Made by a program: the position numbers and the translations under genes
Assembly: GCA_028713895.1 (NCBI GenBank)
Contig: JAQTNH010000001.1
Span: 438,610 to 502,609, forward strand
Direction of reading: 5' to 3'
DNA length: 64,000 bases
Origin: Candidatus Nanoarchaeia archaeon
Lineage (GTDB): Archaea > Nanobdellota > Nanobdellia > CSSed11-243R1
The notes under the pieces: model-generated
Databases searched by the model: none
What the model saw: the letters and a program-made list of their open reading frames with translations, nothing else
Told to the model about the DNA's origin: nothing
In this document: positions 33,114 to 42,108 of the stretch, piece after piece
How positions within the stretch are numbered: the stretch's first letter is position 1
Layout: each line of letters starts with the position of its first letter

Positions 33114-33166
33114 TAATTTAGAAAGCTATTTTAAAAGATATAAGCTTTATCTAGACAGAGAAAAAT

Positions 33167-34702
33167 ATGGAAAAGGCTGAGGTGGATAGGTATAATGTTA
33201 TGCTGGATAACATACCTATAGAGGTTTCTATCCGGAAAGAGCCGGATGAGTTCACCCTCATATATTCCATTTCACTGCCTACATTTGAAGAAGCCTCTAT
33301 GGCGCTTATTGAGGAGCTGAGAGACAGGATAATAACAACAATTCCTGTAAAATTAGAGGTTCTCAGGGACCCTGTTGCGCTTGAAGAAACCCGCAAAAAA
33401 ATAAAAGCAGAGGCCACAAAACTTCTTAAGAGATTCATAAAAGAGCCAAGCCAGGATATACTGGAATACACCAGCTCTTTCCTTGCGGACGAGATGCTCG
33501 GGCTCGGAAATATTGAAATTCTTCTCCGCGATGAGAATCTTGAAGAAATCGTAATCAACGGGAGCAAGGAACCTGTATGGGTTTACCACAAAAAATTCGG
33601 GTGGCTAAAGACAAATGTCACAATAAACAATGAGGCACAGATAGAAAATTACGCGTCAATAATCGGAAGAAGAGTCGGAAGGCAGATAACTGTCCTTGAC
33701 CCGCTGATGGATGCGCACTTAATAACGGGAGACAGGGTAAACGCAACCCTTTTCCCGATTTCAACCCGCGGAAACACACTTACAATAAGAAAGTTCAGGC
33801 GAAAGCCGTGGACAATCACAGACCTAATCAAAAATAATACGATAAACCTTGAAGTAGCAAGCTTTTTCTGGCTCGGGGTGCAGTATGAACTGAGCATGCT
33901 GATAGGAGGGGGAACTGCATCAGGAAAGACGACATTCCTGAATGTGCTTATGCCGTTTATCCCCCCGAATGAAAGAATAATCAGCATAGAAGACACCCGC
34001 GAACTTACACTTCCAAAATTCCTTCACTGGGTGCCCCTGACAACACGCGAGCCAAACCCGGAAGGAAAAGGCGAAGTAACAATGCTTGATTTGCTCATCA
34101 ATTCCCTCCGTATGCGCCCGGACAGGATAGTTGTCGGAGAGATAAGGCGCAGGCCAGAAGCAGAAGTTCTTTTTGAAGCCCTTAACACAGGGCACTCAGT
34201 ATACTCAACCTTGCATGCAAACACAGCGGAAGAGGCGTTCAGAAGGCTGACATCCCCGCCGATTGATTTGCCTCCAGAGCTGATACAATCGCTGCCTTTA
34301 TTCGGAGTGATGTTCAGGCACAGAAAGCTCAGGATACGACGTTTGTTCGAGATATCAGAGCTTGTCAATGTTTCAGAAAAAGGAAGCAAAGCAAACATGA
34401 GAAGGCTTTACAGCTGGAGCGCACGCACAGACAAGATAAGCAAGGACGCAGATTCAATAAGGGTTGCAGACGAACTCAATCTGTTTACTGGCATGACCAA
34501 ACAGGAAATCAAGAGCAACCTTGACACAAAGCAGGAAATACTCAAATGGATGGTAAAAAACAGCGTAGACTCTGTTGATGACGTCGGGAAAGTAATAAGC
34601 CATTATTATACAAACGAGAACGAATTTTTCAAGATACTTGAAAAGAAGGATGCAAAAGATATTCTGCTGAAATACACAGGCGGTCCAGAGAATGAAAAGT
34701 AA
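33167..34702 (+). CDS. Type IV pilus/archaellum-family secretion ATPase (FlaI/PilB/VirB11 superfamily)
   Basis: Walker A GGGTASGKTTFLN, IISIEDTRELTL, Walker B RPDRIVVGEIR, His box TGHSVYSTLHAN. Confidence 0.88.
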   Translation: MEKAEVDRYNVMLDNIPIEVSIRKEPDEFTLIYSISLPTFEEASMALIEELRDRIITTIPVKLEVLRDPVALEETRKKIKAEATKLLKRFIKEPSQDILEYTSSFLADEMLGLGNIEILLRDENLEEIVINGSKEPVWVYHKKFGWLKTNVTINNEAQIENYASIIGRRVGRQITVLDPLMDAHLITGDRVNATLFPISTRGNTLTIRKFRRKPWTITDLIKNNTINLEVASFFWLGVQYELSMLIGGGTASGKTTFLNVLMPFIPPNERIISIEDTRELTLPKFLHWVPLTTREPNPEGKGEVTMLDLLINSLRMRPDRIVVGEIRRRPEAEVLFEALNTGHSVYSTLHANTAEEAFRRLTSPPIDLPPELIQSLPLFGVMFRHRKLRIRRLFEISELVNVSEKGSKANMRRLYSWSARTDKISKDADSIRVADELNLFTGMTKQEIKSNLDTKQEILKWMVKNSVDSVDDVGKVISHYYTNENEFFKILEKKDAKDILLKYTGGPENEK

Positions 34703-35582
34703 TATTTTTCCATTCCTGCCGATGCCCATCGAGGCTGCAGAGAATATTTCAAGGCGTTTTGATTTTTTCTCAAATATACTTTTCAAAGTCAACCCGAACA
34801 TAAAAAAAGAACTGAACCAGGCGGATATTGAAATTGAGCCCCGAAGATATTTTTCAGTCTCGCTCATGTCCGCATTTCTGGTATTCCTGAGCGCATTTGC
34901 GGTCATACTTGTGATAGGGCTGCAGATTAAAACTATTTTTGAAGTGCTGCCGTCCGCTTTCCTGTTCAGCTTTGCTGTCGCAGTGATAATACTCTTTTAT
35001 TACATAACCTACCCCAAGCTGGTGATAATGCGCAAAAACAAGATGATTGACAGGGATTTGCTTTTCGCGCTGCGTTACATTACAATAAGGCTGCACTCAG
35101 GAATCCCCCTTTATGATGCGATGGTGAGCGTTGCACAGGGAGACTACGGGCTTGTTTCAGACGAGTTCAAAAAAACGATAAAAGAGATATCAAACGGGGT
35201 AAGCGAAACAAAAGCGCTCGAGGACATGGCAATACGCAATCCCTCGGAATTTTTCAGAAGGACAATATGGCAGATAGCAAACAACATGCGTTCCGGAGCT
35301 GATGTCGGAAGTACCCTGGAGAGCATTACCAAAAACCTTGTTGAAGAGCACAAAATTCTTGTAAGACGGTATGGCTCTGAGCTGAACCCGCTTATCCTGC
35401 TGTACATGATGTTTTCAGTAATCATCCCTGCGCTCAGCATAACTGTCCTGGTGGTAATGAGCTCATTTTCAGGGGTAAAAGTCCCGGTTATACTGTTTTA
35501 CATAATACCCATCGCAGTATTTTTACTGCAGATTTTTTTCATTTCAGTAATAAAAAACAAGAGGCCTATGCTTACAATTTAG
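34692..35582 (+). CDS. Pilus platform membrane protein, T2SS-F/TadC-like, first half
   Basis: T2SF-type domain LRYITIRLHSGIPLYDAMVSVAQGDYGLVSDEFKKTIKEISNGVSETKALEDM, plus TM helices. Confidence 0.75.
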   Translation: MKSNIFPFLPMPIEAAENISRRFDFFSNILFKVNPNIKKELNQADIEIEPRRYFSVSLMSAFLVFLSAFAVILVIGLQIKTIFEVLPSAFLFSFAVAVIILFYYITYPKLVIMRKNKMIDRDLLFALRYITIRLHSGIPLYDAMVSVAQGDYGLVSDEFKKTIKEISNGVSETKALEDMAIRNPSEFFRRTIWQIANNMRSGADVGSTLESITKNLVEEHKILVRRYGSELNPLILLYMMFSVIIPALSITVLVVMSSFSGVKVPVILFYIIPIAVFLLQIFFISVIKNKRPMLTI

Positions 35583-35589
35583 TGATAGT

Positions 35590-36579
35590 ATGAATGATTT
35601 GCTTGAGAAAATAGGAAGAATGATTGCGCGGGACAACATAGTCAAGATTAGAGCCAAGCTTAATTATGCCGGGCTGAAGGTAAACGCGGAGAGCTTTGTC
35701 GCAATAACTGTGATGGTGGGAGTCCTGTTCTCAATTGCTGCTGCAGTAATATTTTATTTCTGGCTGAAAAATCCGATATACCCTGCTCTTGCACTGATTG
35801 GCGCAGGCGTAACATTTTACTTTTTGATGTCAGGGATAATAGGCCTGCTGGTTGACAACAGGGCAAAATTTGTCGAGAAAACACTGCCTGATGCGCTTCT
35901 GCTTATGGCGTCAAACCTGAAGAGCGGAGTCGCTCCGGATGAAGCGCTGATTCTAAGCGCCAAATCCGAATTTGGTTTTCTTGCCAAGAACATAAAAACA
36001 GCAGGACACAAAATTGCAACAGGCATACCTATTGAACAGGCGCTTGAAACAATATCCGAGGATGTTGATTCCGAAATCCTTAACCAGACTATAGGGCTGA
36101 TAATAGAAGGCATCTCCTCGGGAGGAGAGCTGGCATCAATACTTGAAGGCACTGCGCGCGACATCAAGGACAATGAAATAATACGCAAGGAGATACGCGC
36201 GATAATAATGCTTTATGCAACCTTTATCATGATGGCGGTTACATTCATATCCCCAATCCTGTATGCTGTCTCCACTGAACTTGCGGGGATATTATCCAGT
36301 CTTAGCCAGACTCTTGCGGCAGGATTCCTTGTTGAGGGCTCGTCCTCGGTTGTCCCAATCGCAGCAGCGGACATATCCACTGATTTCCTTCTGGTATTTG
36401 CATACGTCAATATAATCATAACTGGTGTGTTCGGTTCGATGATGATTGCGCTGATAAACAAGGGAAATGAAAAATACGGGCTCAAATACATGCCTTTCAT
36501 TGTAGGCGCTGCGATAATACTGTTCAATGTCGGGAGACTGGCTATGAAGTACTTTTTCGGGAGCATCAGAATACTGTAA
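35590..36579 (+). CDS. Pilus platform membrane protein, T2SS-F/TadC-like, second half
   Basis: LPDALLLMASNLKSGVAPDEALILSAKSEFGFLAKNIKTAGHKIATGIPIEQALE, plus TM helices. Together with the previous ORF it resembles a split FlaJ/PilC. Confidence 0.75.
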   Translation: MNDLLEKIGRMIARDNIVKIRAKLNYAGLKVNAESFVAITVMVGVLFSIAAAVIFYFWLKNPIYPALALIGAGVTFYFLMSGIIGLLVDNRAKFVEKTLPDALLLMASNLKSGVAPDEALILSAKSEFGFLAKNIKTAGHKIATGIPIEQALETISEDVDSEILNQTIGLIIEGISSGGELASILEGTARDIKDNEIIRKEIRAIIMLYATFIMMAVTFISPILYAVSTELAGILSSLSQTLAAGFLVEGSSSVVPIAAADISTDFLLVFAYVNIIITGVFGSMMIALINKGNEKYGLKYMPFIVGAAIILFNVGRLAMKYFFGSIRIL

Positions 36580-36582
36580 CCA

Positions 36583-36598
36583 AGAAAACCTTTTAAAC
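36583..36598 (+). promoter_or_regulatory. BRE/TATA promoter of the stand-alone pilin gene
   Basis: agaaaacc-ttttaaac. A GGAGAGGTG Shine-Dalgarno precedes the ATG at 36640. Confidence 0.55.
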
Positions 36599-36639
36599 AA
36601 GCAGGATGTTGATATATTATCAAGGAGAGGTGTTGTTAA

Positions 36640-37116
36640 ATGTATAATAAAAAAGCGCAATCAGCACTTGAATATCTGCTTACTTACGGCTGGGCAATTC
36701 TTATCGTAATCATTGTCGGTGCATCATTGTATGCGCTTGGCGTCTTCAATCCAGGAACCTTTACAGGAAAAAGAGTCACAGGGTTCACACAATTCCAGGT
36801 TATAGACCACAAGCTGGATGATAACGGGGAAATGACCCTTATGATTGGCAACAGGCTTGGAAAGGCTGTTGAAGTCGGCAATGTCTCCTTTGAATACAAG
36901 AATGACGTGTGCTACAACGCCACTTATGCAAGCTCCCATTTTACGCTGGGGCCGAACACAGAACTGTCCATAACAGAGGACTGCACTGCTGAATGGGGAA
37001 ATCTGGACTTAAGGTCCTCTTATTCAATAATTGTGGACATAGAATTTGATGACCCTGACTCAGCCCTGACGCACACAGATTCAGGAACATTGTTCGGAGC
37101 AGTAGAAGCGCATTAG
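36640..37116 (+). CDS. Type IV prepilin-like protein (class III signal peptide), candidate major pilin
   Basis: MYNKKAQSALEYLLTYGWAILIVIIVGASLYAL: KKA/QSALE with Glu at +5, then a hydrophobic helix. It has its own promoter. Confidence 0.75.
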   Translation: MYNKKAQSALEYLLTYGWAILIVIIVGASLYALGVFNPGTFTGKRVTGFTQFQVIDHKLDDNGEMTLMIGNRLGKAVEVGNVSFEYKNDVCYNATYASSHFTLGPNTELSITEDCTAEWGNLDLRSSYSIIVDIEFDDPDSALTHTDSGTLFGAVEAH

Positions 37117-37126
37117 TATTCTATCC

Positions 37127-38116
37127 TTATTTTTTTATTAATTCGATAGTGCCTATTATCGGGTACTCTATCTTGATAAGATTGTGGTCGTCAAGGATTG
37201 ACGCCCATTCTTCAACAAGCTTTGCATCCACCTTAAGCGCTTTTGAAGCGTCTTCAGTGGAAATTTTTCCTTTTTGCTCGACAAGCTCAAGAAGCTTGTC
37301 AATTCCAGTCTCTATCTTCATACCCATAACAGAGCTTGTCTGTGAAACTCTTTTTAGAATATCTGCCTTTGAAACAACACTGACTGGCTTCTGGTCTTCA
37401 ATTACAAAAAGACGGTTTGCTTTTGCTGCATTCATCTTTTGCATTACATTCCCGAATGTTTCCTTCGGTGCAATTGTTTCAGCAGGGCGCGTCATTTCCT
37501 TTACAGGCCTTGACATCAAAACCTGAACTTGGCTTGGTTCAGTCTTTTCAATACGTTTTACAATGTCCTCAGACTCTATAGCGCCCTTAAGCTCGCGCTT
37601 GGATGTAACTGCCAGACCGCGTATGTCATTCTGCAGCATGAGCTCAATTGCCCTTGCCACCTTTTCATTCTCCTCGATTGACACAACACCCTCAGTCAGC
37701 ATGGACTCTACGGGCTCGGCATGATAACTTTTCTCCCTAGTTATTATGCGCTTTAGCCCCAACTTGCCGAAATCCTCAGAATTCTTTAACTTGTGGGACT
37801 CTGTCGCCAGTATAGCATTTTCTATTCTTGACTTGGTTTTTTGTTCATGATGTTTTTTAACAAGCGCAATGAATGGTTTGCTTCGGAGCTTTAGCCTGTT
37901 TTGAGGATGAATCTTAGGAATCCCAAGAACTTCATGCATCTTTTTCTGGGGCGCTTTCCTTGCGGATTTTTTTGCCGATTTTCTCTTTTTTGATATCTTC
38001 TTTTCAGGAACATGTTTGGGTTCAGGCTTCTTTTTGCGGAACACATTTTCCTTCTTCATTTTGTCCACTACCAACTCCAATCTCCTGAATACATCATCTG
38101 TTTCAGCCCTCGCCAT
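37127..38116 (-). CDS. CBS-pair protein with a Lys-rich N-terminus and a C-terminal winged-helix-like module
   Basis: Basic tract KKKPEPKHVPEKKISKKRKSAKKSARKAPQKK. Two CBS repeats (IRGLAVTSKRELKGAIESEDIV and NRLFVIEDQKPVSVVSKADIL). C-terminus IDKLLELVEQKGKISTEDASKALKVDAKLVEEWASILDDHNLIKIEYP. Confidence 0.6.
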   Translation of the reverse strand: MARAETDDVFRRLELVVDKMKKENVFRKKKPEPKHVPEKKISKKRKSAKKSARKAPQKKMHEVLGIPKIHPQNRLKLRSKPFIALVKKHHEQKTKSRIENAILATESHKLKNSEDFGKLGLKRIITREKSYHAEPVESMLTEGVVSIEENEKVARAIELMLQNDIRGLAVTSKRELKGAIESEDIVKRIEKTEPSQVQVLMSRPVKEMTRPAETIAPKETFGNVMQKMNAAKANRLFVIEDQKPVSVVSKADILKRVSQTSSVMGMKIETGIDKLLELVEQKGKISTEDASKALKVDAKLVEEWASILDDHNLIKIEYPIIGTIELIKK

Positions 38117-38152
38117 AGCTATTCCATAAAAGCTGTATATTAAAAAACCTAA

Positions 38153-38878
38153 CTAAGTTACATTGAAAAGCGCGGTTCCAAGAACCTTTTCAGAGGCTAT
38201 GCTGACAGAAATAAGCTGATGCCCTGTATTCCCAATAACTGAGATAGTTCCATTATAAATTCCATTTACAGTTGATTCAGACGCGCTGCTTATCAATGAG
38301 CTGTTTGAATCATAATAGCTTATGTCTATTGCAGAATCAACAGCAGTGCCGTTAAAATGTTCCAGCACAACCTGATAATAAAGTGTTGCTCCGGCGCTGA
38401 ATGTGTCATTCTCATATAAATATCCGGAGTCGTTGTAAGTTTTGACTCCAACAAAAGCGACATTATCATCAATTTTTAATTTGACGCCCTCGCTTGTCAT
38501 CTGGAGATACAGAACATTTAAGCCGGGTTTAACAGGCATGGTTCCGTATATGGACGCTGCAGGCTGTCCGATTGCGTCGCGGGGAGGGTCGCTGAAACGT
38601 ATGTTTATTTCCTGGTCATGGATATATGTGCGATTTCTGACTATGTCGCCCGGAACATTAATTGTTACTTTTGTGCTTGCATTCAAGCCCTGCGAATAAA
38701 CAAGGTTCGCAGCAGAAGTTGTGACACTGACCATCTGCTTTGCATTCATCCCGTTTGTATCAAAGAAGTAACCGCTTACATAATTGTATCCAAGATACGA
38801 GGTTACTATCAAAAGTATAAGCCCTAATGCAATAACACTCAGGAATTCAATTGCGCTCTGCGCCTTCATCACAGCCAA
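38153..38878 (-). CDS. Prepilin-like protein
   Basis: MAVMKAQSAIEFLSVIALGLILLIV: KA/QSAIE class III signal. Confidence 0.7.
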   Translation of the reverse strand: MAVMKAQSAIEFLSVIALGLILLIVTSYLGYNYVSGYFFDTNGMNAKQMVSVTTSAANLVYSQGLNASTKVTINVPGDIVRNRTYIHDQEINIRFSDPPRDAIGQPAASIYGTMPVKPGLNVLYLQMTSEGVKLKIDDNVAFVGVKTYNDSGYLYENDTFSAGATLYYQVVLEHFNGTAVDSAIDISYYDSNSSLISSASESTVNGIYNGTISVIGNTGHQLISVSIASEKVLGTALFNVT

Positions 38879-39207
38879 ACCTCTTTTACGATTTCAAGAT
38901 TTGAGTCCTCTATCCTGATGTAGCTTTCATTGAACTCAATGTCTATGCCGTAGTAATCAGCAAAATCTGTGTTGATGTAATTGACGTAAGACGCTATTGT
39001 CTGGGCATCAGCATTTTTGCTGTGAAGATAATTTAATCCCTCTATGACGTCGTCATAGATTGCCGAAATCCTGTAGCTTGCAACAACCCTGTATTCTTTG
39101 TCATGCTCAAACTGGACGCGCTCATTCTGAACAACAAAAATTGTAAGTATCACCAGAAAAATCAGCTGTATTACAAGTATTGTTGCGAAAATTCCCTTCC
39201 TGTTCAC
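38869..39207 (-). CDS. Small prepilin-like protein
   Basis: MNRKGIFATILVIQLIFLVILTIFVV: RKG/IF followed by a hydrophobic helix. It overlaps both neighbours. Confidence 0.55.
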   Translation of the reverse strand: MNRKGIFATILVIQLIFLVILTIFVVQNERVQFEHDKEYRVVASYRISAIYDDVIEGLNYLHSKNADAQTIASYVNYINTDFADYYGIDIEFNESYIRIEDSNLEIVKEVWL

Positions 39208-39989
39208 GATGTCCCAACCTCAAGCTCAGCTATGCCGTAGCGGATGACATTGAATGATTTGTAAGCAAACTGGTTGTAAGTCGGCCCGCTTACAGATGCA
39301 GAAATGTTGTATTCACCTATGACTGCGTCAGGCGGAAGAATTACATTGTATTCGAATGTTTTTGACTCGCCCTGAGTCGTAAACAGGAATTCCGGGGTTG
39401 GATAATTCCACAAAATTATGGGCCAGCCTTCCAATTGGCCGCCAGAGCTATAGATATTAGTGACTACTGTTCCCTGCTGTGGCAAGCCTTCCTCCTGATT
39501 TGCCATTACTATAACACTTAATGGCACTGATGCCGGAGCCTGAGAAGACTGAATATTAATATTCATCCACGGGGCCGGCAGTATCCCTAAGTTTTCAGTC
39601 AGGGTTAAAACAAGGAATTTCCGCACAACAATGCTAGTTTCAAAATCATGTTCATTGACAGTAAGGCTGTTGACAAGGTTTCCGCCGTCGTAAACATTAA
39701 GACGCATTTCAGCAGGGTATGGAAGTTCGCCCAGCATTTCCTGTACTATCGCTTCAGCCTGCGGTATATTGTTCAGCTGTAGCTGCTCAAATGCCTGCGA
39801 CAAATTTTCTGCCTTGTCAGAAGCGCGGAGAAAGTTCTCGCTGTTCATGTAAATAGTTGAATCCTGCACACTTACCTGCGGGTCAGGCGTCAATAGCGAA
39901 TAGACCGCTACTATCACTGCAATGAAAATTGAAAATGCAACAAGTGCATCAATCGTGAATATTATCGCTTTTTTGTTCATTCGTACCAC
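39204..39989 (-). CDS. Prepilin-like protein
   Basis: MVRMNKKAIIFTIDALVAFSIFIAVIVAV: KKA/IIFTID. Confidence 0.6.
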   Translation of the reverse strand: MVRMNKKAIIFTIDALVAFSIFIAVIVAVYSLLTPDPQVSVQDSTIYMNSENFLRASDKAENLSQAFEQLQLNNIPQAEAIVQEMLGELPYPAEMRLNVYDGGNLVNSLTVNEHDFETSIVVRKFLVLTLTENLGILPAPWMNINIQSSQAPASVPLSVIVMANQEEGLPQQGTVVTNIYSSGGQLEGWPIILWNYPTPEFLFTTQGESKTFEYNVILPPDAVIGEYNISASVSGPTYNQFAYKSFNVIRYGIAELEVGTS

Positions 39990-40037
39990 ACTCCCACAGC
40001 CCTTCTGCGCCTTTGGTTTGAAGCCCTGGCGGAACTG

Positions 40038-40541
40038 TTATTCATACCATATCCCCAATGTTATCATAGCAAGATAGCTGCTGTCTACCCAAGCCTTTCG
40101 TTCGGAAAATATTGCCTCGCTTCCAGCAGGAGGCTCATATCCTGTGATTATGCTTACTCCGTCAATATTCAATAAGTTTCCGTCTGCATCCCTGGCATCA
40201 AAATAAAAGTTGTATCCCCTGATTCCGAGAAGCGCCTGGCTGCAGTTGTAGTCCAGGCTTGCAAATGCCTTTAATTTTTGTCCGGAAATAATACCCGGCG
40301 CGCTCATGAAACCCAGCGAATTTATCTGGGCGCAACCTTTTGTTTCCCAGTCATCAGGATTACCTTTTGTTGACATCAGGACATTAAGCGCCGGCTGTGA
40401 ACGCAGTTCCAAATCACCGAGTTCAGCCTGCTGTTTTTCATAAATTGTATATTGGTAAAGAAGGACTCCAAGCCCGCCGATTATAGTCAGCACAATCAGG
40501 GCGGCAAACATGACATCCAATGAGATTATCTGTGCCTTCAT
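40038..40541 (-). CDS. Prepilin-like protein
   Basis: MKAQIISLDVMFAALIVLTIIGG: KA/QIISLD. Confidence 0.6.
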   Translation of the reverse strand: MKAQIISLDVMFAALIVLTIIGGLGVLLYQYTIYEKQQAELGDLELRSQPALNVLMSTKGNPDDWETKGCAQINSLGFMSAPGIISGQKLKAFASLDYNCSQALLGIRGYNFYFDARDADGNLLNIDGVSIITGYEPPAGSEAIFSERKAWVDSSYLAMITLGIWYE

Positions 40542-41188
40542 CTGACCCTCACCAATTTTTCAGCATTTAAGTTCTTGTAATCATTGTCAGCTACAAATAC
40601 GGTGTAATCATCAGACGCAATCCCTGCCGTGTTCCATGTGTAGTTTATTGAATTGCTGGCTGCTGTGCGTGTTAACGGGCCAAGCAGTGCAGTGCCATTG
40701 CTGTAAAATATTGTAAGGTTTGCAGCAGCCCCATTGATGTATTGTGACATTATCAGCGCAGCTTCTCCAACCAAATAATCGGACTGATTTGTGTCTATTG
40801 AAGTAAGATATACTGTGCTGTCCATATTAGTTGCAGAAACTTTTCCAGAATAAACAACCTGGCTTGTTATGTTACGCGTGACAATAGAGCATACAGCTAT
40901 CTTGTCGCTCCACTCAACTGTTGCAGTGTAATTGCCCGAAACTCTTATTGCTGTAAGAGGGTCGGCATAAACTTTGTAAGGAACGCTCATGTTTATTGAG
41001 AAACCATCCCCCCCAATCACGGCTGCGTTAATGCCTTCAGAAAACTTGTAGCAGACATGTTCGGCAAAAGTGTCCTCAATTATGTTGTTCTCTGTGTAAT
41101 AACTGTAGGCGCCTATCGCAATAACATAGATAACCAGCATTATTGTAACGCCTGTGATAAATTCAAGCCCTGACTGCGCCCTCACCAT
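40538..41188 (-). CDS. Prepilin-like protein, first gene of the minus-strand pilin operon
   Basis: MVRAQSGLEFITGVTIMLVIYVIAIGA: RA/QSGLE. Confidence 0.7.
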   Translation of the reverse strand: MVRAQSGLEFITGVTIMLVIYVIAIGAYSYYTENNIIEDTFAEHVCYKFSEGINAAVIGGDGFSINMSVPYKVYADPLTAIRVSGNYTATVEWSDKIAVCSIVTRNITSQVVYSGKVSATNMDSTVYLTSIDTNQSDYLVGEAALIMSQYINGAAANLTIFYSNGTALLGPLTRTAASNSINYTWNTAGIASDDYTVFVADNDYKNLNAEKLVRVR

Positions 41189-41319
41189 GTTAAGACTTAA
41201 AAATTATGGATTTATTATGTTTTAGATAGCATATTATTGTAGAATTGGTTTTTTTAACCAAATTGTATTTTGGTATCACAAGCCAAACATTTATAAATAA
41301 GTTCTTCTTAGTCTACATC

Positions 41320-42108
41320 ATGTTCAAAACTGAAAGTGAAATCGCGGATTTCATAATAAAAAACTCATGGATAATCGAGGAAGATCTAACTTTGATAGGC
41401 AAAGAAATTGGTACTGGGTTTGATGAGGTAGGCAAAATAGATATTTTGTTTAAAAATAAACAAAACCAGTTCGTAGTAATAGAACTGAAGCTAAACAAGC
41501 TTACATCATCGGCAGTAGCACAAATGGTTAAGTATACAGGAGCCCTAGCAGCCAAGTACAGTTTAAACAGAGAATCCATAAAAATGATACTTATCGGAAA
41601 TTCAGCAACTGCTGAAGTAAAATCTTTTTGTTCTCTCTTGGGTATCCGCATTATAGAATTCGGTCTTGTGAACGAGCTCCAGCTTAAAATTGAGTCCTAT
41701 CTAAATAATTTTGAAAAATATAAAAGTAAAGAAAATTTGGAACATCCAAAACTAATCAAAGATGTTATTGATGTGCCCAAACAAATTACTCGGGTAAAAT
41801 ATAGAATAATAAAACTAAAAACTGTGCCTGCTATCGCATCAGGCAGTTTTTTAGAAGTAGGCAATAATGACAATCTGTTTAGCCTTTTCACGCCAAAGCG
41901 AATTCAATTAATAAATGAATTAATCAGAACCAAACATTTTTCGATTAGAGAACTTGCAAATTCTCTTAACAGAGACATTAAAAATGTTTTTGATGATTTG
42001 ACAATGCTGAATCAAGCTGATATAATCGAATTGGTCCAAGAAGGAAAACGTAAAGTTCCCTATCTAAAAAACAATACGTTACTAATCAGGTTTGGAGAAC
42101 AAAGGTGA
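41320..42108 (+). CDS. PD-(D/E)xK nuclease domain (DUF91/NucS C-terminal-like) fused to an ArsR-like wHTH
   Basis: [39 protein letters not shown] fits the D...ExK...Q..Y pattern. The C-terminus is [50 protein letters not shown] tttataaataa at 41290-41300 suggests a leaderless start at 41320. Confidence 0.65.

Follow-up and report, generated by a model that had tools for sequence, protein, structure and literature searches.

A type IV pilus-like locus with a split platform and six putative prepilins in a Candidatus Nanoarchaeia archaeon

We analyzed a stretch of 64,000 nucleotides from a Candidatus Nanoarchaeia archaeon (assembly GCA_028713895.1, contig JAQTNH010000001.1, positions 438,610 to 502,609), which we refer to as the window, and focused on a locus at window positions 33167-41188 that encodes a type IV pilus-like system in two convergent operons. 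All ten open reading frames (ORFs) were confirmed at the coordinates first noted, based on the ORF listing of the region from 30 to 44 kb. The initial annotation had described a FlaI/PilB ATPase, two T2SS-F proteins, and a prepilin on the plus strand, as well as a convergent minus-strand operon of five prepilin-like genes that ends with the gene of a CBS/winged helix-turn-helix (wHTH) protein, and all of these genes were found as placed. The plus-strand genes encode the 511-aa ATPase, two platform proteins termed F1 (296 aa) and F2 (329 aa), and a 158-aa pilin, and the minus-strand genes are transcribed in the order p216, p167, p261, p112, p241, and the gene of the 329-aa CBS/wHTH protein. The minus-strand prepilin genes had been regarded as overlapping throughout, which is true for three of the five junctions of this operon, but not for the 48-nt gap between p167 and p261 and the 36-nt gap between p241 and the CBS gene. 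The ten genes, with the predicted processing sites of the pilin-like proteins marked by a slash and transmembrane helices abbreviated as TM helices, are the following:

33167-34702, plus strand: pilus assembly ATPase of the PilB/FlaI/CpaF family, 511 aa (PF00437, E 2.5e-35, 122 bits)
34692-35582, plus strand: platform protein 1 (F1), single T2SSF domain, 296 aa (PF00482, E 1e-17, 64.7 bits)
35590-36579, plus strand: platform protein 2 (F2), single T2SSF domain, 329 aa (PF00482, E 1.4e-14, 54.6 bits)
36640-37116, plus strand: major pilin candidate, 158 aa, N-terminus MYNKKA/QSALEYLLTYGWAIL... (ORF start MYNKKAQSALEYLLTYGWAIL)
37127-38116, minus strand: CBS/wHTH protein, 329 aa (PF00571 (CBS), E 1.3e-16)
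38153-38878, minus strand: p241, class III-type N-terminus MAVMKA/QSAIEFL..., single TM helix
38869-39207, minus strand: p112, N-terminus MNRKG/IFATILVIQ... with the acidic residue absent, single TM helix
39204-39989, minus strand: p261, N-terminus MVRMNKKA/IIFTIDAL..., single TM helix
40038-40541, minus strand: p167, N-terminus MKA/QIISLD..., single TM helix
40538-41188, minus strand: p216, first gene of the operon, class III-type N-terminus MVRA/QSGLEFI..., single TM helix

The Pfam scores of the ATPase and of the two platform proteins compare with cut-offs of 24.9 bits for PF00437 (T2SSE) and 25.2 bits for PF00482 (T2SSF). In the ATPase, the Walker A motif (GGGTASGKTT), the Asp box, Walker B, and the His box are all intact. 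Its nearest solved relative is GspE of A. fulgidus (afGspE, 2OAP), with 257 bits over the full length, followed by FlaI with 203 and CpaF with 179 bits. The afGspE protein has the same length of 511 aa, and the alignment runs from the N-terminal domain through the ATPase core to the C-terminal helical region. With the curated NCBIfam models, the highest score was obtained for FlaI (296.7 bits at a cut-off of 550), and TadA scored 207.5 bits.

The platform is encoded by two genes. F1 is the counterpart of the N-terminal half of FlaJ/ArlJ, aligning with positions 5-248 of 555 in the ArlJ model, and has predicted TM helices on both sides of its cytoplasmic domain, whereas F2 corresponds to the C-terminal half (ArlJ model positions 192-464 of 465), and the two proteins are paralogous, with an hhalign probability of 99.3%. 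As the two proteins align with the N- and C-terminal halves of ArlJ and are paralogs, the split is real, in agreement with the earlier assignment of a FlaJ/PilC equivalent divided into two genes. Such a split platform is not unusual but rather a hallmark of the archaeal 'system 1' or Epd-like pili and of the bacterial Tad pili (PMC6668835, PMC13705601).

Among species-representative genomes, a scan identified 76 related loci, with ATPases of about 50% identity from metagenome-assembled genomes (MAGs) labelled as Micrarchaeota, Iainarchaeota, Woesearchaeota, Nanohaloarchaeota, and Aenigmarchaeota. In a maximum-likelihood tree, whose references were afGspE, FlaI, CpaF, and a single bacterial locus, 72 DPANN ATPases formed a single clade (SH-aLRT 98) that was separate from the pair of afGspE and FlaI as well as from two other type IV filament (T4F) ATPases of the same genome. 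The afGspE protein, although the nearest solved relative, thus groups with FlaI of S. acidocaldarius and apart from the DPANN clade. Within the phylum of the window's organism, an ATPase ortholog (E <= 1e-90) was present in 116 of 201 sampled genomes, often in two copies.

As FlaI is the best curated model of the ATPase and ArlJ that of both platform halves, the locus could in principle encode a reduced archaellum and thereby a rotary swimming filament. The two systems indeed share a homologous ATPase and platform and class III signal peptides. However, the ATPase falls well short of the equivalog cut-off of the FlaI model, the platform is split, and in the tree the ATPase lies outside the FlaI/afGspE pair. 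The archaellum-specific genes are missing as well: no archaellin (PF01917) was found anywhere in the genome, which comprises 1.07 Mb at 89.5% completeness, no ArlD/E (PF04659) match was found in it, the ArlC model (PF05377) gave only sub-threshold coiled-coil noise genome-wide, and ArlF/G is absent from the locus. There is no KaiC-like ArlH ATPase beside the locus, and the KaiC-like matches of the genome are far away. Furthermore, the major pilin has an Ala at position +3, whereas a Gly at this position is universal in archaellins (PMC4390842). Based on the model scores, the missing genes, and the tree position, we rejected the archaellum, which is extremely improbable. The initial annotation had noted a lack of archaellum-specific genes in the window, and none were found in our searches.

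All six pilin-like proteins have a short basic leader, a [KR][GA] pair at positions -2/-1, and exactly one N-terminal hydrophobic helix, and four of the six have a Gln at +1. The initial annotation had assigned the motif (Q/I)xx(L/I)(E/D) to all five minus-strand N-termini. This motif is exact in p216, p241, and the major pilin, which have Q+1 and E+5, but not in p167 and p261, where the acidic residue is at +6, nor in p112, which has none. N-glycosylation sequons are overrepresented in p241 and p216, with 8 versus 3.2 expected (p 0.007) and 7 versus 3.0 expected (p 0.02), respectively, as is expected for archaeal surface proteins.

With profiles from the window's family, the homologs of p241, p216, p167, and p261 were found at operon positions 1, 2, 3, and 4 of the related loci, with E-values down to 9e-18 for p167. 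The p112 gene is conserved within the window's family and weakly resembles a fifth pilin-like gene of relatives that encodes about 320 aa (E 0.017). The N-terminal motif of p261 matches that of the fourth pilin-like gene, whose products range from 141 to 1468 aa in the relatives, the longest being that of locus L080. In two loci, L074 (4930-7671) and L036 (3334-5247), this fourth gene encodes a VWA domain above the Pfam cut-offs, which fits a modular pilin that may act as a tip adhesin in these relatives. It is a reasonable inference that the five minor pilins of the window form a minor-pilin or tip complex.

The 158-aa protein is the candidate for the major pilin. The 37 orthologs that we aligned all have Q+1, E+5, T, Y, A, and L, and their consensus at the processing site is KG/QAAMEYLMTYGWAILV. 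Within the window's family, the protein is 51-59% identical, with an invariant processing site. AlphaFold2, supplied with the ortholog alignment, predicted a helix from residue 5 to 32 followed by a beta-sandwich at a pLDDT of 90.4. The best Foldseek match of this model in the PDB was 8fk7, an archaeal type IV pilin of Pyrobaculum calidifontis (E 1.6e-4), and the fifth was 8q30, the Aap pilin of S. acidocaldarius, and the fold is pilin-like.

The noncoding elements that could serve the expression of the plus-strand genes are as follows:

33121-33137, plus strand: B recognition element (BRE)/TATA-like element gaaagc-tattttaaaa, about 30 nt 5' of the ATPase start codon; putative operon promoter
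36584-36597, plus strand: promoter-like GAAAAC-CTTTTAAA (BRE/TATA-like), 5' of the major pilin gene; putative
36624-36632, plus strand: Shine-Dalgarno sequence GGAGAGGTG, 5' of the major pilin gene
37130-37136, plus strand: T7 run, candidate oligo-T terminator of the plus-strand operon, 14 nt after the pilin stop

The initial annotation had proposed a strong promoter of the pilin gene at 36583-36598. A promoter-like element is present at 36584-36597, but the window contains no significant excess of the motif (5 matches versus 2.25 expected). Therefore, we regard a separate promoter as plausible yet putative. The T7 run is contained in the final codons of the CBS gene, which is transcribed convergently.

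The prepilin peptidase is not part of the window, as noted before, and a search of the genome gave a single A24 enzyme of 282 aa at G000:C1:400398-401246. Its distance is about 38 kb to the start of the window and about 71 kb to the gene of the ATPase. The enzyme is encoded upstream of the window and matches PF01478 with 60.9 bits (400428-400763), has about six TM helices, and contains both catalytic Asp motifs, D22 and GGGD84. The enzyme is FlaK/PibD-like, with 43.9 bits for the FlaK model (cut-off 330) and 23.9 bits for the EppA model (cut-off 450). With an ATPase, a T2SSF platform, and a class III filament protein at the locus and an A24 peptidase in the genome, all components of the core T4F definition (PMC6668835, PMC13705601) are present. 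The data support a type IV pilus-like system other than an archaellum, in which two genes encode the platform and six encode prepilin-like proteins.

The related loci have a recurrent gene order. In the relatives, a one-directional module comprises five pilin-like genes followed by the genes of a wHTH protein, the ATPase, F1, F2, and the major pilin, and this module is complete and collinear in eight loci (L028, L036, L052, L069, L074, L077, L079, and L080). Both platform genes are present in 55 of 71 related loci and a gene similar to that of the 158-aa pilin in 41 of 71, in relatives 3' of F2. A Micrarchaeota variant has the order wHTH-coiled-coil gene, ATPase, an extra gene, F1, F2, and pilin. 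The extra gene, which encodes about 440-590 aa between ATPase and F1 (for example L017:11439-13157) and occurs in about 30 loci, has no Pfam match. As dozens of genomes that were assembled independently carry this combination of genes, the locus is beyond chance, and we are highly confident that it is a real and complete type IV pilus gene cluster of a conserved DPANN kind that does not serve motility.

Across cluster 2 DPANN, Hamm et al. (2024) described a pair of conserved type IV pilus loci that include coiled-coil proteins, detected several products of these loci by proteomics in Ca. Nanohaloarchaeum antarcticus, and likened the coiled-coil proteins to viral attachment proteins (PMC11291902). 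The window shares with these loci a CpaF/FlaI-like ATPase, a TadC-like platform, a PilA-like filament protein, and an adjacent accessory protein, and ATPases of about 50% identity occur in MAGs labelled as Nanohaloarchaea, Woesearchaeota, and Aenigmarchaeota. In Nanohaloarchaea-type loci, moreover, a neighboring amidase gene (GatE-like) corresponds to 'Locus 1' of that study. The differences are that the window has a CBS pair together with the common wHTH of about 55 aa instead of the coiled-coil protein and that an inversion has placed its pilin/wHTH block in a convergent operon.

A pair of platform genes with one domain each is the defining feature of the Epd-like/Tad group (Denise 2019, PMC6668835) and also of 'System 1', which was reported in the Nanobdellati (Sivabalasarma & Albers 2026, PMC13705601). 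According to Makarova (2016, PMC4858521), clade 1 has at least five minor pilins and a 9-TM EppA peptidase, and many clade 2 systems have two tadC genes. Like Epd of Methanococcus maripaludis and the clade 1 and System 1 pili, the window locus has two single-domain platform genes, a simple ATPase without long extensions, and five minor pilin-like genes, with Q+1 in most of the pilin-like proteins (criteria of PMC4390842 and PMC4858521). It differs from Epd and clade 1 in that the genome has one FlaK/PibD-like enzyme of about six TM helices and no 9-TM EppA, and in that its major pilin is an in-operon protein of 158 aa with a globular beta-sandwich rather than a stand-alone pilin of about 70 aa. 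The bacterial Tad (Flp) pili likewise combine a platform of two half-size proteins with an ATPase of the CpaF type (179 bits to solved CpaF for the window's ATPase) and several pseudopilins, and they have a role in adhesion. A VWA domain is present in one pilin of the window's relatives and also in TadG of the Tad system. Secretin, TadZ, and a short Flp pilin, however, are absent from the window locus, and its platform genes are in the order N-half then C-half. The F1 and F2 profiles failed to detect the platform genes of the sole bacterial Tad-like locus that was retrieved (L082). As the architecture matches the Epd-like/Tad, System 1, and Hamm DPANN loci, the window locus is of a described kind: it has the Epd/Tad-like 'system 1' architecture and corresponds to the conserved DPANN loci of Hamm et al. 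(2024). Clusters of this type had been reported throughout the DPANN before, and the present one is an ordinary representative. Specific to the genome's family are the inverted pilin/wHTH block and the exchange of the coiled coil for two CBS domains.

Such a filament probably serves to attach the cell to a surface or to a partner cell. Whether the partner cell is the specific target is, in our estimation, about evenly balanced. The same core set of an ATPase, a platform, a major pilin, and four to five minor pilins also builds the pseudopili of bacterial type II secretion systems (T2SS) and of competence systems (PMC6668835), and the filament might instead be a pseudopilus or a DNA-uptake or exchange pilus of the T2SS, Com, or Sulfolobus Ups type that imports DNA or other material from the host. 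This would be in line with the dependence of DPANN archaea on hosts for many metabolites (PMC11291902), and the window copy does not have the VWA adhesin module of its relatives. However, none of the genes of the locus was identified as that of a secretin, a DNA translocase, or a DNA-binding pilin, the pili of the nearest characterized relatives, Epd and Tad, serve in adhesion (PMC6668835), and the relatives have VWA-type pilins. We therefore consider an import function unlikely and adhesion the better explanation.

Several observations nevertheless weigh against an adhesion pilus of this kind. The p261 protein of the window has no VWA domain according to Pfam and sequence comparison, shows no similarity to the VWA-bearing pilins of relatives past its N-terminus, and, like p112, is much shorter than its counterparts, and the adhesin function may therefore be located elsewhere. 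None of the six pilin-like proteins reached a Pfam or NCBIfam pilin family, and the class III signal peptide model PF04021 matched just 4 of the 37 orthologs of the 158-aa pilin, with a best E-value of 0.012. The Foldseek TM-scores of this pilin to solved pilins were low, at about 0.37, because the angle between the helix and the globular domain differs. Furthermore, the genome encodes the two further T4F ATPases (690 and 769 aa, with Cys-rich N-termini) and many other pilin-like genes, and the function of the window locus is therefore uncertain. Finally, the role assigned to the CBS/wHTH protein derives entirely from domain content and gene linkage.

The gene order of the locus is particular to the family. 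In contrast to the relatives, all five pilin-like genes as well as the wHTH gene are located 3' of the core genes and are encoded on the other strand. L095-L099, five genomes from the window's family, have the order SMC, ATPase-F1-F2-pilin, CBS-wHTH ... CDC48 in full or in part, depending on the length of the contig, and as they share this neighborhood, the convergent junction is not an assembly artifact. In three of these genomes, the sub-block p167C-p261-p112-p241 is inverted once more. The breakpoint of this inversion lies inside p167, as residues 36-144 of the window protein match residues 364-468 of a 542-aa protein encoded on the opposite strand. In the sister genomes, p167 is reduced to a stub of 68-71 aa with only the class III signal and the TM helix, and its globular part is found within an opposite-strand protein of 542-568 aa with a Sec-like N-terminus. 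We set aside a programmed inversion or shufflon-like switch, as no long inverted repeats were found beside the minor-pilin block in the window, and the inverted block is read as an evolutionary rearrangement.

Such rearrangements could also mean that the locus is a decaying remnant, with shortened minor pilins, that no longer builds a filament. The inversion of the minor-pilin block relative to other DPANN, the short p261 and p112 proteins, and the splitting of the p167 gene in sister genera would agree with this possibility, and Sivabalasarma & Albers (2026) doubt that the T4F genes of DPANN make filaments (PMC13705601). However, the ten reading frames and the catalytic motifs of the ATPase are intact, the genes are tightly packed or overlapping and equipped with promoter-like and Shine-Dalgarno elements, the gene set is retained in every family member examined, and the major pilin has kept its processing site within the family. 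Decay is therefore very unlikely, and we continue with the view that the cluster is complete.

The CBS/wHTH protein consists of a Lys-rich disordered N-terminus, a CBS pair at about residues 134-263, and a C-terminal wHTH at residues 271-328. CBS domains are modules that sense nucleotides. AlphaFold2 predicted the CBS pair with a pLDDT above 90 and the winged helix, in the order a1-b1-a2-a3-b2-b3, with a pLDDT of 97. The Foldseek matches of the full model were dominated by the CBS pair (AcuB, CcpN, and MJ0922) and were thus uninformative on the wHTH, but a profile of the wHTH alone matched generic wHTH regulators, including LrpA (2.7e-5), IclR (4e-5), and others. The wHTH that the initial annotation had assigned to this protein is therefore a true winged helix.

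Only the last 55 residues or so of this protein are common to other DPANN. Among the 58 related loci with enough sequence upstream of the ATPase gene, a gene with this wHTH domain is found 5' of the ATPase on the same strand in 42, and in 36 loci it directly adjoins the ATPase gene, often within a few bases or overlapping. In most DPANN lineages, the wHTH is N-terminal to a coiled coil of 200-500 residues without a TM helix, whereas the window's family has, in place of the coiled coil, the Lys-rich disordered region and the CBS pair, a fusion that is kept in all six genomes of the family. The coiled-coil proteins beside the ATPase (L017, L025, L028, L068, L069, L074, L080, and others) begin with a wHTH. 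No TM helix or signal was predicted for the coiled-coil proteins beside the pilus ATPase, and their genes often overlap the ATPase gene. These three aspects indicate a cytoplasmic role and suggest that the DPANN coiled-coil proteins are cytoplasmic regulators or scaffolds rather than surface proteins similar to virus attachment proteins, as was proposed (PMC11291902). A further and more tentative idea, which we consider possible but doubtful, is that the conserved accessory element is the wHTH of about 55 aa coupled to the ATPase gene, rather than the coiled coil described in the literature, and that the exchange of the latter for a CBS pair that senses an adenosine ligand gates the expression or assembly of the pilus by the nucleotide or energy status. 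If true, the pilus could be gated by, for example, the host supply, the wHTH proteins would constitute a class of cytoplasmic regulators or adaptors specific to DPANN type IV pili, and this would speak against the coiled-coil proteins as extracellular attachment proteins.

Taken together, the parts suggest the following sequence of events. The six prepilins would insert into the membrane via their single N-terminal helix and would then be cleaved after [KR][GA] by the distant FlaK/PibD-like aspartic peptidase. A hexameric ATPase would dock on the two-protein T2SSF platform, which is presumably a heterodimer, and power polymerization. The five pilin-like proteins, most likely of low abundance, could prime assembly and cap or decorate the fiber, as bacterial minor pilins do, and the 158-aa pilin, with its promoter-like element and strong Shine-Dalgarno sequence, would form the shaft. 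The CBS-pair/wHTH protein, which would be the local form of the wHTH protein encoded directly 5' of the ATPase in DPANN, is probably a regulator or scaffold of the system that responds to a ligand containing adenosine.

Most of the tiny DPANN archaea depend on a host, and their surface filaments are among the foremost candidates for host contact; we infer host attachment also for the filament described here. While the machine itself is already known, the locus is a well-resolved example in which every part is mapped. Recent surveys describe the T4F genes of DPANN as scattered, but at least some DPANN lineages keep an ordered pilus module of ten genes. The wHTH protein with its CBS pair or coiled coil is a concrete accessory candidate that could explain how the pilus is controlled.

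Next to the minor pilins, between their operon and cdc48, an ORF at 41245-42108 encodes a protein with a nuclease-like N-terminus and a wHTH, and a protein of about 100 aa in the sister genomes L096, L097, and L099 matches its C-terminal part. Elsewhere in the genome, a second and larger T4F locus at G000:C1:315704-333122 encodes the 769-aa ATPase, a 754-aa platform protein, and more than 15 proteins with class III N-termini of the KKA/Q type. The third T4F ATPase, of 690 aa, is encoded at C1:239693-241765, and an orphan gene of a 668-aa platform protein is found with pilin-like genes near C1:584032-587505. A 512-aa protein with a PIN domain, a PilT-like ATPase domain, and a KH domain (G000:C1:427779-429317) gave a weak T2SSE match and is no pilus ATPase. 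Two giant ORFs of 2119 and 1889 aa in tandem at G000:C1:197274-209408 share a class III-like N-terminus (MNSKGESRLNLILNRFGASKA/SASLKIFLALIIFG) and possibly encode giant pilin-like surface proteins.

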